A stretch of DNA of 61,374 nucleotides, filler included. It is 6 parts of 6 records of this genome, joined end to end, with 100 filler letters (N's around TTAATTAATTAA, not from the genome) between each part and the next. Parts side by side here need not be neighbours in the genome. Positions count along the whole stretch, not along the records: positions 1 to 12,381 come from SRR31156797_22499; 5 more parts are not named here. One strand, written 5' to 3'. How positions within the stretch are numbered: position 1 is the stretch's first letter; each line of letters opens with the position of its first letter. A program made the position numbers and the translations under genes. This document shows positions 11,033-39,610 of this stretch, one piece after another. The notes beneath the pieces were generated by a model. That model ran no database searches and had not been told where the DNA came from. It was given only the letters and a program-made list of their open reading frames with translations.

Positions 11033-11620
11033 TTATTCTTTCCACTCAACTTTTGTATCGATTGAGCCTCTTCCCGGTGAAGGATAATCTATTGCAATAT
11101 AACCAACATGAAAAAATCCCAGTAATTTCTGACCAGGTTTCAATTCCAATGTTTCGTGTAAAAAAGGTAAAAATTGTGGCGATGCCCAAAATGCACCCAG
11201 GCCGGCTTCGGTTGCAGTTAACCACATATTTTGAACGGCCATTGAAACAGCAGCTATTTCTTCCCATTCCGGAATTCTTTTGGCTTCATCGCGTTGCATA
11301 ATTATGGCAATCGACACCGGAACCCGTTTTAAGCTTTCTCTGAATTTCTCCGCCTTTTGTGGATTAATCGCTGTTCCTTTAGAAATTTTCTCTTCCAGTA
11401 TTATGTAAATTGAATGTGCCAGATTTTCTTTTGCTTTACCGGTATAAACAACAAATCGCCATGGTTCGGTATGTTTGTGGTTGGGAGCCCAGTTTGCATT
11501 TTCCAAAAGATTTTGAATAATTTCTTTTGGAATTTCTGTTTTATCTATAAATCGAGGCGGAGTAGCTCTGCGGTTTTCAATAATGTCTTTAAAGTTCATT
11601 GTCTTTATTTGTTTTTTCAT
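11033..11620 (-). CDS. Nitroreductase family protein (YdjA-like)
   Basis: IIENRRA, ANWAPNHKHTEPWRFVV, AVQNMWLTATEAGLGAFWAS. Confidence 0.92.
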   Translation of the reverse strand: MKKQIKTMNFKDIIENRRATPPRFIDKTEIPKEIIQNLLENANWAPNHKHTEPWRFVVYTGKAKENLAHSIYIILEEKISKGTAINPQKAEKFRESLKRVPVSIAIIMQRDEAKRIPEWEEIAAVSMAVQNMWLTATEAGLGAFWASPQFLPFLHETLELKPGQKLLGFFHVGYIAIDYPSPGRGSIDTKVEWKE

Positions 11621-11825
11621 TATGAAGATTTTTTATACAAACATTTACTTAACCAAAGTTGTTCTTGCCAAACAAAATCAGGATCATATTTTACGAAAAG
11701 TTACTAAACCAGGTTTAAGTACGGGAAAAGATTTTTGATTTTGTTTGATTATGCCTGTTCGCAGTTATCAACAATTGTTAATAACAACAGTTAGTACTTG
11801 GTGTATATAAACCAAGCCAAACCTC

Positions 11826-11857
11826 TTGACTTTAATATCAATTTTTGATTATTTTTG
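11826..11857 (+). promoter_or_regulatory. Bacteroidota housekeeping promoter
   Basis: -7 element TAnnTTTG = TATTTTTG at 11850-11857 with TTG at ~11826; predicts a start near 11863-11865. Confidence 0.65.
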
Positions 11858-11862
11858 ATTTA

Positions 11863-12380
11863 TCAGATGAGCGATAAAAGGCAGTTCTGAGATTGTGGAG
11901 GCGGGAAAGTTTCTTAGTTGAAACCGGAACAATTCGAACCAACCTTCGGGATGGCACAAAAGAAGAACCGAAGTTTGAACTTGATAGTCTGGAAATCAAA
12001 GTTCAGTCAATCATCGAAAGAAACCAGACGTTCTTTTATAGATTGAGTCATCAGGCAGGAGACCAAACGATTTCGGTCGCATAAGTCATACTGCACAACA
12101 AAAGTGGTAAAACACCGGAGTTGATTAAAGAATGCAAAAACCGAAAGGGAGATGCAGGAAAACTGAGTGACACTTCGTCCAGGAAGGCAATCTAGAATGC
12201 CGAACGGAATACCGAAAAGGTTTGCTGTAGAAAGCTAACCCGGAAAGTAAAGGGCTTAAATTAATTTGAAAAAGTTAAAGAAAGCCGGTCGTAATAACCG
12301 TAATCTGGCACGAGAGGAAACTTCGGTTACCTCAAGTGAATGGGAGCTATTCGTAACAGAGTAGTTCCCATTTGTGTTTT
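11863..12380 (+). ncRNA. Candidate large structured non-coding RNA (~510 nt), family not recognised
   Basis: Promoter upstream, terminator at the end and no credible ORF. More than ten hairpins with UUCG/GAAA loops, complementary loops GUCUGG/CCAGAC and long-range closing helices. Confidence 0.7.
12339..12380 (+). terminator. Intrinsic terminator closing the candidate ncRNA
   Basis: AATGGGAGCTATTC-GTAACA-GAGTAGTTCCCATT followed by TGTGTTTT. Confidence 0.75.
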
Positions 12381-12381
12381 A

Positions 12382-12481
12382 NNNNNNNNNNNNNNNNNNN
12401 NNNNNNNNNNNNNNNNNNNNNNNNNTTAATTAATTAANNNNNNNNNNNNNNNNNNNNNNNNNNNNNNNNNNNNNNNNNNNN
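12382..12481. other. Artificial contig spacer
   Basis: N44-TTAATTAATTAA-N44 (stop codons in all frames); gene content and composition change across it. Confidence 0.98.
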
Positions 12482-12501
12482 TACCGTTGATGCCAATCCA
12501 G

Positions 12502-12587
12502 TACTAACGCCGCGTTAAGGTGCGACAAACATAGCGTGCCATACTGTCGGCACGCGTTTGGAGTCACTCTTAAACGCTTTGTTAAGT
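12502..12587 (-). repeat. Integron attC site (short, ~86 bp)
   Basis: Minus strand begins ACTTAAC (RYYYAAC) and ends GTTAGTA (GTTRRRY-like), with imperfect dyad symmetry; directly after a cassette stop codon. Confidence 0.88.
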
Positions 12588-13295
12588 GCGTTTCCAAGGG
12601 GCGGCATCAAAAAACTTTAACTTAAGCCCAAGACTTTCTGCTTCTTGTAATTCAACCTGTATTTCATCAAACAAATTTGGCATTACATAATTCTTGAATT
12701 GAATTCGGTTCATCAGTATTGGTGTTAACTCCTCCTCACTGAGGGGAACGAGTTCTGAAAACAAATAGTTGTAAAAATTGAACACTGTCTTAAGCACTTC
12801 ATATGCGTGATTGTGACTCCAGAACATTGAACATTTGGGAATTTTCACTTGTTTATGTAATTTGCCTTCCAAGTCCATAGGTAGGTTCCAATTTTCCTTA
12901 CCATCTTCTGGTTTACCAATATCAGTTTTGATTTTGGTTCCTTTCTGATGCACAAACTGATTCCGGATTTGAAGTAACTCTTTAACTTTTTGAACTACAT
13001 TGCTCCCGTAGTCTAAGCCTGACAGCTGATGTTCAACTCGCAAGTACATGTCTATTTTAGATAGAGCGGGCATCCTGTCTAAATCATTTAATGTTTGCGG
13101 TGATACTTCAATTTGCTGAAGTAAAGCATTAGCGCAATTTTCAATGGACAGAACAGACGCGCAAATAGACGAGCGGGAAAAGCGGTTACATCTGTAACTA
13201 CTATTTTCACTCTGTTGCGCTTGAGTATGTTGTATCAATGCATCACACAGTAAGTCAAAGAATCCGACACGCATAAACTGAGCTGGAATTTTCAT
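12582..13295 (-). CDS. Integron cassette protein with HEPN-like R-x4-H motif
   Basis: Single ORF between two attC sites with matching GTTAAGTGC/GCACTTAAC ends; helical protein containing IRNQFVH. Confidence 0.7.
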   Translation of the reverse strand: MKIPAQFMRVGFFDLLCDALIQHTQAQQSENSSYRCNRFSRSSICASVLSIENCANALLQQIEVSPQTLNDLDRMPALSKIDMYLRVEHQLSGLDYGSNVVQKVKELLQIRNQFVHQKGTKIKTDIGKPEDGKENWNLPMDLEGKLHKQVKIPKCSMFWSHNHAYEVLKTVFNFYNYLFSELVPLSEEELTPILMNRIQFKNYVMPNLFDEIQVELQEAESLGLKLKFFDAAPWKRT

Positions 13296-14384: not shown

Positions 14385-15728
14385 ATGGCTGGGATCAATA
14401 AACTACATGACACTACAATAAAAAAAGCAAAAGCAGGTGATAGAGAATATACGCTCGGAGACGGTGGAAACTTATTTCTTAGAATTCGCCCTAATGGAAC
14501 GAAAAATTGGATATTTGTCTATTCACATCCTCACACCAAAAAACGTATGAAGCTGGGTTTAGGTGCATATCCAGACACATCGCTCACTTACGCTAGAACA
14601 TTAGCAAAAGAGTACCGTAATCAACTTGCTCAAAGCATAGACCCAAAAATCTATCGTGAGAAACTACTATTAGAACATCAAATTAAACATCAAAACACGT
14701 TCTTATTTGTCGCTGAAAACTTTCTAAAAATGCAAGAAGACAAGGAAGCATTGAAGCGCAAAAAATTAATTGATGAAGCACAAATACTTGCTAGACAAAA
14801 TAACACTGATTTCGATGAGACGGATCTGGCAAAAATACATAATAAAGTTCGAACATCACATCGTAAGCGCCTTTTCTTGAAAAAGAATATCTACCCTGCT
14901 CTCGCAAATATGCCTATTACTGATATAACCGCGCCTGGTGTCATCAAAGTAATCGAACCCATAGCTGCATTAGGGAAATTGGAGAACGTAAAACGTGGCT
15001 GCGCCATAATGAATCAAATAATGAATCATGCAGTTAACCGTTCATTCGTTAAATTTAATCCTTTAAATGCCATTGCAGACGTTTTTGTGAAGCCGATATC
15101 TCAGTCAATGCCAACCGTTGAGCCAAAAGAGTTGGGTGATGTTATGAGGATTATGAGTAATTGCAACATGAAACATGTCACTCGCTGTGCTTTCGAAATG
15201 CAGTTCCATACGCTTACTCGAGCAGAAGAACTCGCATCAATGCGTTGGTGTGACATCAACTGGGATGAAAATCTTTGGACAATACCAGACTTCATGACCA
15301 AAATGCAGCGCCAGCATAGAATTCCATTGACTATCTATACCGCTGGAATTCTTCAACATATGAAAGCCATTTCTGGGGATGACAAATACGTATTTCCCTC
15401 TGACAAACTTGGTAGCAAGTTTCCACACATTAGTCCTTATGCAGTAAATTCGGCCTTACAGGCTACGCCCTTGAAGGGAAAGCTCGTAGCACATGGATTA
15501 AGATCGATAGGTAGTACGAAGCTCAATTCGGAAAAGTTTGATGAGGATGCTATAGAAGTGGCACTTTCTCACTTAGACAAAGACCGTGTTCGTGCTGCTT
15601 ATAATAAAAATGACTATTTGGAAGAACGCCAAGAAATCATGAATTATTGGAGCGACTTTATCGTACAGTCAACTGGAAAATACTATTCGATTGCAGGTCA
15701 ATATAAACCTGAAGATACAATAAGCTAG
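14385..15728 (+). CDS. P4-type tyrosine integrase with arm-binding domain
   Basis: N-terminal YTLGDGGNLFLRIRPNGTKNW...LGLGAYPDTSL; catalytic R (TLTRAEE), HGLRS, LSH and RAAYN. Confidence 0.95.
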   Translation: MAGINKLHDTTIKKAKAGDREYTLGDGGNLFLRIRPNGTKNWIFVYSHPHTKKRMKLGLGAYPDTSLTYARTLAKEYRNQLAQSIDPKIYREKLLLEHQIKHQNTFLFVAENFLKMQEDKEALKRKKLIDEAQILARQNNTDFDETDLAKIHNKVRTSHRKRLFLKKNIYPALANMPITDITAPGVIKVIEPIAALGKLENVKRGCAIMNQIMNHAVNRSFVKFNPLNAIADVFVKPISQSMPTVEPKELGDVMRIMSNCNMKHVTRCAFEMQFHTLTRAEELASMRWCDINWDENLWTIPDFMTKMQRQHRIPLTIYTAGILQHMKAISGDDKYVFPSDKLGSKFPHISPYAVNSALQATPLKGKLVAHGLRSIGSTKLNSEKFDEDAIEVALSHLDKDRVRAAYNKNDYLEERQEIMNYWSDFIVQSTGKYYSIAGQYKPEDTIS

Positions 15729-37786: not shown

Positions 37787-39610
37787 ATGAATAAATCCCT
37801 TCTAGCGGTGGCAGTGGCGTCGCTGTGTTCTTATACCTCTTTTTCATACGCACAAGAAGCAACCGCTGATGAAACTATCGTTGTAACGGCGAACCGTTTT
37901 GGTCAAAGTCAGGCTTCAGTGTTAAATGCAACGACCGTGGTTTCTCGTCAAGAGATTGAAAACTATCAATCAAATTCCTTATTGGAACTACTTCGTCGTG
38001 TTCCCGGAGTAGAGATCGCCCAGAATGGTGGTCGAGGACATAATGCCTCTATTTTCATGCGTGGCACCAACAGTGATCACGTATTGGTACTGGTTGATGG
38101 CGTTCGTATTGAATCTGCTGCTGGTGGTGTTGCAATAAACCGTTTCCCTGTTGGCTTGGTTGAACGATTGGAAGTTGTTCGAGGCTCTGGCGCCGCTATG
38201 TATGGCTCAGATGCCATTGGCGGTGTGATTAATATTATTACACGCACACACCTAGGAGATAACCTTAAGCAAGTAAACGCAGGTGTTGGTAGTAATGCTT
38301 CCCGCCAAGGTAGTGTCGTTGTTAAAAATGATACTTCAGAGCAAGGCCACTTGCAGCTTGCTGCTGGTTTTGAAAACACCGATGGTTATGACATTAAGGA
38401 AACAGGGACAGGCGTTGACTACGGCTACGATAGCCAGAACTTGATGGGTGGCTATGAGCATCAGTTTAATCAGAGCTGGCTAGGTTATGTATCTGCAAGT
38501 TGGCTTAATAGCGACGTTGAGTACGATAGTTTCGGCTCTGTAAGTCACGGTTATTCTGATAATCAAAGTTTTACTGCGCAGTTGAATTACCAGGGTGAAC
38601 AACTAAGAAGTCTATACAGTGTTAATTACCAAAAGACTGAAGATTTAGATTATTCACAAAGTGAGGGTAAAGATAATGCAAGTACGCGTGCCAATATCAC
38701 TCTAGCTCAACTTCAATGGGCGAATCTTTACCAACTGAATGATAATGTTGAACTAGGCGCGGGGATTGATGGTCGTCGAGAGAAGTTAGATGGCGATGCT
38801 TTGAGCTACGGTTCTGCACATAATCTTGCTGGGGAAAGTCGCGATACATTGGGTGCTTTTGTTTCAGCGAAATGGAGTTTAGGTGATTGGGCATTGGAGG
38901 CTAATGCTCGTCATGATAAACATGATGACTATGATAAGAACACAACTTGGTCTACAGCGGTTGGTTATCAGATTAATGAACAGCATCTGGTTAGAGCATC
39001 ATATGGTACAGCTTACAAAGCACCGAGCTATTCTGATCTAACAACGACTCCTGATCTAAAAGCGGAAGAGTCAGACAATATAGAAATAGGTGTATCAGGT
39101 ATATATTCCTTTGCATCGTGGAATGTGTCTGCTTATGACAACCAAGTGGATAACCTTATTATTTGGTATCAAGGCGCAAGTGGGTGGTATTCAGATAATG
39201 TGAATGCTCATATCAAGGGTATTGAACTTGATGTTAACTTCGATACAGGTCCGATTAACCATACAGTTGTGGCTGAATTTAAAGATCATGAAGATGACAA
39301 TGGTGTTCAGCTAGCACGACGAGCCAAAGAAAACTATAAATGGATTAGTTCCGTTCAGTTTGGGGACTTCGATATTAACGCCACTTATACCTACACAGGT
39401 AAACGTTTGGATCTTCCAACGCCCCAACCAACGGCAGAAGACTATATTTCGTCAACGAACTTATGGGATGTCTCTGTAGGGTATTGGGTAACTGATAAGT
39501 TAGTGTTCAGAGGGAGAGTGGATAACTTGTTTAATGAACAGTACGAAACCGCTCTGACATATAAAGCTCCAGAACGTGCGTATTACCTAAATGCGAATTA
39601 CCAGTTCTAA
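37787..39610 (+). CDS. btuB: TonB-dependent vitamin B12 receptor
   Basis: Signal peptide, TonB box ETIVVTANR, RGTNSDHVLVLVDG, YGSDAIGGVINIIT, C-terminal YQF; riboswitch upstream. Confidence 0.95.
   Translation: MNKSLLAVAVASLCSYTSFSYAQEATADETIVVTANRFGQSQASVLNATTVVSRQEIENYQSNSLLELLRRVPGVEIAQNGGRGHNASIFMRGTNSDHVLVLVDGVRIESAAGGVAINRFPVGLVERLEVVRGSGAAMYGSDAIGGVINIITRTHLGDNLKQVNAGVGSNASRQGSVVVKNDTSEQGHLQLAAGFENTDGYDIKETGTGVDYGYDSQNLMGGYEHQFNQSWLGYVSASWLNSDVEYDSFGSVSHGYSDNQSFTAQLNYQGEQLRSLYSVNYQKTEDLDYSQSEGKDNASTRANITLAQLQWANLYQLNDNVELGAGIDGRREKLDGDALSYGSAHNLAGESRDTLGAFVSAKWSLGDWALEANARHDKHDDYDKNTTWSTAVGYQINEQHLVRASYGTAYKAPSYSDLTTTPDLKAEESDNIEIGVSGIYSFASWNVSAYDNQVDNLIIWYQGASGWYSDNVNAHIKGIELDVNFDTGPINHTVVAEFKDHEDDNGVQLARRAKENYKWISSVQFGDFDINATYTYTGKRLDLPTPQPTAEDYISSTNLWDVSVGYWVTDKLVFRGRVDNLFNEQYETALTYKAPERAYYLNANYQF

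Follow-up and report, generated by a model that had tools for sequence, protein, structure and literature searches.

The first contig (1-12382) of the stretch of DNA analysed here (the window, 61,374 nt, whose first part is SRR31156797_22499) ends in what we judge, at a probability of roughly 85%, to be a complete gene, transcribed on its own, that encodes a stable and highly structured noncoding RNA (ncRNA) of an uncatalogued family, at 11862-12380 on the plus strand. The predicted transcript is ~519 nt long, its 5' end placed from the promoter spacing and its 3' end from the U-tail of the terminator. As far as tested, the RNA is a new class and not a variant of a known one. The original prediction, made from the sequence alone, was of a stand-alone, large structured ncRNA, possibly of a new class; the transcript, covariation, coding and Rfam checks all came out in its favor, and every element it described is in the sequence where it had been placed. 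Transcription would begin at P1, a terminal helix of 6 bp that joins the 5' end to a position ~75 nt short of the 3' end. Then would come an internal loop with two near-invariant strands (GAGNGAUAAAAGG facing AAUAACNGUA) and a second helix, P2, while a 3' hairpin and the terminator would follow P1.

The region folds far better than shuffled versions of itself. On the plus strand the minimum free energy is -147.9 kcal/mol, vs. -118.7 ± 5.8 for dinucleotide shuffles (z -5.03; 0 of 100 shuffles equal it); the reverse strand gives z -3.71. A consensus structure was computed with RNAalifold from 38 full-length homologs, which align with the RNA over its entire length (alignment A1), and a kissing loop was then added as a pseudoknot. 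RNAalifold predicted 100 pairs, with compensatory changes in 71. When the kissing loop is included, 93.5% of the cells in the 106 pairs are standard pairs (84.3 ± 0.3% in column shuffles), and 75 of the 106 pairs change on both sides (41.4 ± 3.1 in column shuffles), values that none of 500 shuffles reached. Sliding the 3' partner by 1-3 columns, as a control, lowers pairing to 28-42%. Covariation among homologs, on which the original prediction had staked its structural claims, is therefore abundant. The strand is fixed as plus by frequent G-U pairs, which on the opposite strand would read A-C (e.g. 23 and 20 U-G in P1), and the promoter and terminator have the same direction.

The boundaries of the gene are marked on both sides. 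A Bacteroidota-type -7 promoter box, TAnnTTTG (TATTTTTG), is present at 11850-11857 (+) as predicted and is kept in 38 of 38 aligned homologs, with A7 and T10-T12 invariant and G13 at least 90% conserved. A wider set of 88 distinct family members was collected by a motif scan of loci; as the motifs were a condition of selection, this set describes the members and is no test of them. The box lies 5-6 nt 5' of P1 in most of the 88, the regular expression that selected them having demanded it. A -7/-33 architecture is described for Bacteroides promoters in the available part of PMC7366714. At the other end, the strong terminator that had been proposed at 12339-12380 (+) is borne out: its hairpin (12339-12372, helix 24) has 14 pairs that are 97.2% paired in the 38 homologs, with compensatory changes in 8, and is followed by a conserved U-rich tail, CCCAUUUGUGUUUU.

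No convincing open reading frame (ORF) had been seen here, and none is conserved among the homologs. The five ORFs of at least 30 aa in the region are open and in frame in only 1, 11, 7, 1 and 2 of the 38, and the lengths of aligned segments fall into all three residue classes modulo 3, so that indels are not multiples of three. With no conserved frame in these 38 homologs, the region does not class as a protein-coding gene or small ORF.

All elements of the architecture lie on the plus strand. Position by position, the 5' strand of P1 (UCAGAU, 11863-11868) pairs with its 3' strand (AUCUGG, 12303-12308) in 60-63 of 63 sequences and covaries by GC-to-AU exchange, just as one of two long-range helices in the original prediction had it. 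The other, CAGUU/AACUG (11882/12161), fails and is rejected as a closing helix, since three of its five positions pair in merely 22-25 of the 63 sequences; the true second closing helix is P2 (helix 2), formed by 11880-11885 and 12284-12290, which is 95.3% paired and has 4 of 5 pairs changed on both sides. Between P1 and P2 lie the two near-invariant strands of the internal loop, J1/2 (GAGCGAUAAAA, 11869-11879) and J2/1 (GUAAUAACCGUA, 12291-12302). Inside P2 comes a 5' three-way domain (~11895-11965, helices 3-6, mapped from alignment columns 52-121) containing a conserved CUUAG hairpin and a CC-UUCG-GG hairpin; its helices are 93-97% paired, with 14 of 16 pairs changed on both sides. A long-range helix, P7 (helix 7, CGAAGU/ACUUCG, 11969-11974/12172-12177; 98.2% paired, 2 of 6 pairs changed on both sides), encloses both kissing hairpins plus a variable hairpin set. 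The variable middle with its 3' hairpins (12047-12283, helices 11-21) is 82-97% paired, corresponds to the indel-rich columns 237-470 of A1, and is the segment with the greatest length difference among relatives. After P1 stands the 3' hairpin (CAC...UUCG...GUG, 12309-12338), whose helices 22 and 23 are 100% and 89% paired, with 5 of 6 pairs covarying in helix 23.

Among the individual hairpins predicted earlier, covariation supports CC-UUCG-GG (~11943) as helix 6, CC-GAAA-GG (12141) as helix 15 (CG 24, UA 10), UUAAUUU-GAAA (12261) as helix 21 and GAGG..UUCG..CCUC (~12314) as helix 23. The CGAU-UUCG-GUCG hairpin (~12068) is in a variable stretch and falls outside the RNAalifold consensus; judged by eye in the alignment, the homologs all have a UUCG- or similarly capped hairpin there, with a differing stem. 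A likeness of 12311-12319 (ACGAGAGGA) to the sarcin-ricin loop was rejected, as the stretch lacks conservation and forms one side of a covarying helix.

The predicted kissing interaction joins loop A (GUCUGG, 11987-11992) of the hairpin at 11975-12005 (helix 8, 5 of 5 pairs covary) to loop B (CCAGAC, 12024-12029) of the hairpin at 12007-12046 (helix 10). The resulting helix 9 is paired in 84.8% of cells, with 4 of 6 pairs changed on both sides, and covarying versions include AUCUGG/CCAGAU, GUCUGU/ACAGGC, UCUGGA/UCCAGA and GUCUGGAA/UUCCAGAC. Between 4 and 8 complementary loop bases are retained in ~30 of the 34 closest sequences, a level that loop shuffles seldom match. The interaction thus holds for the subclade of the window, but it is clade-specific and no hallmark of the family: other subclades have UUCG, GNRA or CUUG tetraloops at these sites, without complementarity. 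Such loop contacts raise the alternative of an RNA-only quaternary assembly, i.e. a defined homo-oligomer as in GOLLD, ROOL and OLE, in which the conserved core would be the inter-subunit interface and the arms and loop contacts would be used for assembly. Ornate RNAs form homo-oligomers according to the available part of PMC12286853, and the many UUCG/GNRA-capped hairpins, the covarying 6-bp loop-loop complementarity, the variable peripheral arms, the lack of a linked partner gene and the high depth in RNA libraries would all suit such an assembly. We nonetheless consider it unlikely, because the complementarity looks intramolecular, with the kissing loops on adjacent hairpins of one molecule, and is missing in most subclades, short members (~230-300 nt) have few arms, and there is no sequence or model similarity to GOLLD, ROOL or OLE.

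The family as a whole shares a compact core: P1, the near-invariant asymmetric internal loop, P2, the 3' hairpin and the terminator. P1 varies with compensation among the 88 members (UCAGGU/ACCUGG, UCAAGU/ACUUGA, UCAGAU/AUCUGG, UCAGAC/GUCUGG, UCAAAU/AUUUGA, CCAAGU/GCUUGG). J1/2 reads GAGNGAUAAA(A/G)G in all 88, which were selected by regular expression; 33 have it as in the window, GAGCGAUAAAAGG, and the others differ at 1-3 positions. J2/1 is AAUAACNGUA in 74 members, the other 14 being one base off or, once, having an inserted U. Counted from the first base of P1 to the last of P1', the members span 158-579 nt (446 in the window), and total lengths are ~230-650 nt when the ~72-nt 3' tail is counted. 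The middle between the P2 strands is multi-hairpin, UUCG/GNRA-capped, and varies several-fold in size between lineages. Because the shortest relatives have just ~230-300 nt, large size is a trait of the clade and not of the family.

An invariant core with a variable periphery is the typical conservation pattern of catalytic RNAs, and the internal loop could on that ground be the active site of a ribozyme or ligand-binding RNA that the periphery stabilizes, in the manner of RNase P or group I introns. The invariant, purine-rich, asymmetric loop between covarying helices and the several-fold variation of peripheral size agree with this. Nothing evident points to a substrate, a site of cleavage or processing; the models of known ribozymes give no match apart from RAGATH-6 at chance level, and RNase P RNA is located elsewhere in related genomes. 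We regard such an activity as quite improbable. Conserved unpaired stretches (J1/2, J2/1, the CUUAG loop and GUUCUUU) might instead serve a trans-acting base-pairing regulator or sponge, and the promoter-to-terminator unit is like those of the Bacteroides small RNAs described in the available part of PMC7366714. This too seems improbable to us: the RNA is far bigger and more structured than known Bacteroides small RNAs, it is helices that are conserved, by compensation, and not a seed, and the invariant strands are opposed in one internal loop.

Homologs were sought at several taxonomic depths. Relatives were reached through the nitroreductase gene of the first contig (11033-11620, minus strand): nhmmer found the RNA at 8 of 80 nitroreductase loci, with constant side and orientation, and BLAST with a 557-nt query gave matches in 5 of 5 of these genomes. 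Homologs, which the original prediction had proposed to seek in Bacteroidota genomes, proved common at close range: of 201 genomes sampled from the same, Prolixibacteraceae-like family, BLAST finds them in 147. In the order sample it reaches 12 of 201 genomes at E ≤ 0.001, with mostly short matches and clear ones in a handful; a profile hidden Markov model (HMM) showed the weak, ends-only matches to be full-length homologs with diverged middles. Covariance models (CMs) were built for the 5' domain (R1) and the 3' domain (R2); R2 holds just the terminator hairpin as structure, so its matches lean on sequence. The CM runs used strict filters on partly incomplete genomes, and a non-match there means not found rather than absent. 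R2 matched 125 of 151 genomes in the family sample, 33 of 151 in the order sample (R1, 11 of 151) and 14 of 151 in the class (Bacteroidia) sample; in the phylum sample it matched 2 of 151 and no others, these being the query's own relative and one genome shared with the class sample. Nearly all order and class R2 matches are preceded, at 250-650 nt and in the same orientation, by the 5' motif, which shows them to be true members and not stray terminators. Independent support for membership comes likewise from co-occurring separate 5' and 3' HMM or CM matches. The family is present in most sampled Prolixibacteraceae-like genomes and in a minority of those of the same order and class.

There are 1-5 copies per genome, some of them in tandem, and every tandem copy has a promoter box and a terminator to itself; in some related genomes head-to-tail copies are 800-1100 nt apart. 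Arrays of two copies were found at loci L129 (1569-3066), L144 (1052-2718) and L146 (972-2341), of three at L130 (1037-3236), and of two plus one cut copy at L145 (983-2940). A partial copy stands next to a Mariniphaga sediminis locus (L029).

An index search found words of the stretch in 20 public runs, of which 10 are on record as RNA. Contigs were compared from four runs: two RNA runs of one study (X3, X5), an RNA run of another (X10) and a DNA run (X1). Such contigs show neither ends, strand nor level, and their summed depth mixes relatives. RNA-library contigs of X3, X5 and X10 together cover 11892-12372, i.e. the body of the RNA, which answers the call for a transcript. X5 has a 187-nt contig identical to the window (12040-12217) at a word depth of 19,688 and an identical 77-nt contig (12259-12334) at a depth of 4,323; X3 has a 302-nt contig with 7 differences from the window, and X10 a 422-nt contig of a relative with 40 differences. 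RNA libraries of two studies thus contain, and sample heavily, the RNA together with close relatives of it; the libraries derive from sediments. At 11300-11891, the nitroreductase and spacer, no RNA-run contig was found and the DNA run is present in all 30 bins, a gap that is evidence neither of silence nor of a 5' end. Two apparent signals of transcript ends were rejected: a loose end at 11909 in X10, as a transcription start, resembles sequencing adapter, and joints skipping 70-323 nt, as processing, are most simply relatives with different middle domains.

The RNA lies at the extreme end of its contig, where repeats often break assemblies, and in many relatives a same-strand gene lies 74-200 nt upstream. 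One might therefore suspect a cis-acting part of a neighboring gene (a leader, 3' untranslated region or riboswitch), or a mobile element's guide or scaffold RNA, the element having been lost where the contig stops. The DNA run accounts for the contig end in another way: its contigs end within the conserved cores, at 11851-11871 and 12283-12313, and the simplest reason for the window's contig stopping just after the terminator is that DNA assembly breaks in the conserved 5' and 3' cores. The gene is complete despite the contig end. Flanks of 38 close and 25 distant loci (1.5 kb per side) were clustered, and 18 flank proteins were scanned. Upstream of the close loci the same-strand gene is an alpha-L-fucosidase in 17 of 38 and a PLP-decarboxylase-like gene in 8 of 38, and an alanyl-tRNA synthetase gene and a KDO8P/DAHP-synthase family gene recur nearby too; among the 25 distant loci a convergent dnaG is found at 4-5 and a downstream relA/spoT at 3. 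The neighbors are ordinary housekeeping or metabolic chromosomal genes that change between lineages on both sides. No transposase, Cas protein, reverse transcriptase, phage protein, nuclease or recombinase was found among the 18 flank proteins, nor, accordingly, any cognate gene next to the RNA that would make it an IscB/TnpB omega RNA, an IS110 bridge RNA, a retron msr-msd or a tracrRNA. BLAST gave no match to the RNA in phage and plasmid collections, and viral contigs held no exact 18-mer match. Given these results and its own conserved promoter and terminator, we give almost no weight to a cis-acting or mobile-element origin.

Two side observations concern these neighbors. Fucose-related genes recur, with an L-fucose isomerase on the window's contig (1-1584) and the same-strand alpha-L-fucosidase directly upstream in the 17 of 38 close loci (e.g. 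L108, 3-1391), perhaps as inherited synteny and not through any link in function. At four distant loci (L166, L170, L172, L174) the RNA terminator is -2 to 19 nt from the stop codon of the convergent dnaG, and the terminator hairpin may act there as a bidirectional terminator.

The RNA does not match catalogued families. Rfam 15 (4227 models, gathering thresholds), which we take to include GOLLD, ROOL, OLE, HEARO and raiA, gave over the whole stretch a sole match, a cobalamin riboswitch on another contig. A permissive rescan of 11600-12382 at E up to 10 yielded six chance-level matches, the best, RAGATH-6 (E 2.1), scoring 21.6 bits vs. a gathering score of 170 and lying upstream of the RNA; the lone one inside the RNA is mir-255 (18.5 bits). 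On 27 loci of close and distant relatives Rfam 15 gave two tRNAs nearby and nothing else. Neither here nor at the relatives' loci, then, is a family matched, whether at the gathering score or with E as high as 10. ARAGORN found no tRNA or tmRNA (transfer-messenger RNA), and in the window there is no match to RF00010, RF00023 or RF00169, in keeping with the earlier statement that signatures of RNase P, tmRNA and signal recognition particle (SRP) RNA were missing.

The other stable RNAs were then sought in five related genomes. RNase P RNA (RF00010) was found in 4 of 5, at loci different from this RNA's; tmRNA was over its cut-off in 4 of 5 and SRP RNA was found in 5 of 5, again at other loci. 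6S RNA, which has a promoter-like bubble and acts as a decoy for RNA polymerase, calls for more discussion, because paired ends, a large conserved bubble between two helices and abundance would befit the lineage's 6S RNA, and in the five related genomes no match came from RF00013, the general 6S model, which is silent in a Bacteroides control too. Bacteroidales-1 (RF01693), however, occurs once in each of the five genomes at other loci (2 over the cut-off; e.g. G001:C15:311072 vs. this RNA's homolog at G001:C15:6073), and 6S-Flavo (RF01685) gives sub-threshold matches at those loci in 4 of 5 (not G291). Bacteroidales-1 is stated to be the Bacteroides 6S homolog in the available part of an S. 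copri preprint (10.1101/2024.04.05.588293), and the B. thetaiotaomicron 6S RNA is described as validated in that of PMC7366714. Since the 6S homolog occupies a separate locus in all five, and P1 has just 6 bp in a branched RNA of 230-650 nt, identity with 6S is largely refuted and we hold it very improbable. The RNA is distinct from RNase P, tmRNA, SRP and 6S RNAs. As a side observation, the probable 6S RNA of Prolixibacteraceae-like genomes (G001:C15:311072-311266; G309:C1:836067-836256; G243:C1:216406-216599; G344:C5:1275328-1275519; G291:C1:48222-48409) scores 48-64 bits vs. a cut-off of 60, so automatic annotation would miss 3 of 5.

What the RNA does may be approached from its pattern of conservation. 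Compensated helices, a letter-for-letter loop where the ends meet and a several-fold variable middle lead us to infer action by shape. RNase P, SRP, 6S, Y and raiA RNAs show this type of conservation; seed-pairing regulators do not. We tentatively favor, at somewhat less than even odds, that some partner in the cell, most likely a protein, is bound by the platform of P1, loop and P2 together with the 3' hairpin, the RNA being a stable ribonucleoprotein or a decoy; its action would be comparable to that of 6S, Y or raiA-type RNAs, and the variable middle would serve as a structural scaffold. More doubtful, in our estimate, is the broader proposal that Bacteroidia have in this RNA a fifth stable one of 'housekeeping type' beside RNase P, tmRNA, SRP and 6S RNAs, with a platform for a new biochemical role.

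Several points weigh against the picture given here of a stand-alone gene, a new family and a bound partner. The first ~30 nt of the RNA are uncovered by RNA contigs at 88% or greater likeness, and both transcript ends are predicted from sequence features. No match was found in 26 of 151 family genomes and in most order and class genomes, where the RNA may be dispensable or merely diverged; many of these assemblies are incomplete, and the filters were strict. The label 'Prolixibacteraceae' rests on the named relatives of the nitroreductase. No conserved adjoining protein gene indicates a partner, and the idea of partner binding draws solely on the invariant core, the variable periphery and abundance. 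A literature search found no mention of such an RNA, with supplementary tables (e.g. of PMC8040213 and PMC7366714) and paywalled papers outside its scope, so a prior description in a paper or supplement may exist.

The stretch itself consists of at least six contigs, with G+C of 0.31-0.61 (~0.33 in the first), separated by N runs around the six-frame stop linker TTAATTAATTAA, which occurs at 12426, 28135, 41389, 50017 and 56286 in N-filled joints (e.g. 12383-12482). Features of different contigs are not neighbors, and a single organism of origin is probably excluded. The first contig carries a Bacteroidota polysaccharide-utilization locus with L-fucose isomerase, DUF2961, SusD, SusC/TonB receptor, FecR anti-sigma and extracytoplasmic function (ECF) sigma factor genes; the nearest named relatives of its nitroreductase (at most 71% identity) are in Draconibacterium, Maribellus, Mariniphaga and other Prolixibacteraceae. 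The second contig encodes a tyrosine integrase (14385-15728, plus strand; domains Arm-DNA-bind_3, Phage_int_M and Phage_integrase), adjoined by a 237-aa ORF with no Pfam match (12582-13295, minus strand), and the two may belong to an integrative element. The cobalamin riboswitch (RF00174; 37540-37737, plus strand; 93.7 bits, E 5e-22) lies directly 5' of a 607-aa ORF (37787-39610).

If the RNA is indeed a fifth housekeeping RNA, it would be a new ribonucleoprotein, ribozyme or RNA-only assembly, which lineage expansions took from ~230 to ~650 nt. To our knowledge, large structured RNAs of the orphan kind are rare, and those examined so far (OLE, GOLLD, ROOL and raiA, on which there is recent cryo-EM work) each gave unexpected biochemistry; Bacteroidia, as far as we know, are without Hfq and ProQ-type chaperones, and little of their RNA biology has been charted. 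For this reason an abundant new RNA could reveal a missing piece of the post-transcriptional or structural machinery of Bacteroidia. Follow-up is helped by dozens of diverse covarying homologs that give a reliable secondary structure, a compact invariant core, natural size variants of ~230-650 nt and the occurrence in sediment RNA libraries; relatives with homologs would include cultured, named strains of Draconibacterium, Maribellus and Mariniphaga, with Tangfeifania a further candidate genus. An Rfam entry is warranted, as the RNA otherwise stays unannotated.

The RNA invites comparison with several known systems. Like OLE, GOLLD and ROOL, it is an orphan, a large ncRNA that stands alone and folds intricately, with covariation-supported tetraloop-capped helices, long-range closing helices and a loop-loop contact. 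Unlike them it matches no Rfam 15 model, sits in Bacteroidota, has ~230-650 nt, and is chromosomal with no phage or tRNA neighborhood in the loci examined; the earlier description of it as of the 'GOLLD/ROOL/OLE kind' is sound as analogy but not as membership. The raiA motif RNA, abundant and of unknown function according to the available part of PMC12968392, is similar in being conserved and structured around a conserved core; it differs in that its model does not match, it belongs to other taxa, and the present RNA has a terminal P1, internal loop, P2 and variable inserted domain. With 6S and Bacteroidales-1 the RNA shares a stand-alone, abundant, chromosomal nature and 5' and 3' parts that pair around a conserved internal loop, while it is branched, 2-3 times longer, closed by a merely 6-bp helix and encoded at a locus separate from that of Bacteroidales-1. 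RNase P RNA offers an architectural analogy, with an invariant core, lineage-specific peripheral helices and a housekeeping-like, mostly single-copy gene, though the present RNA has neither its conserved motifs nor a match to its model.

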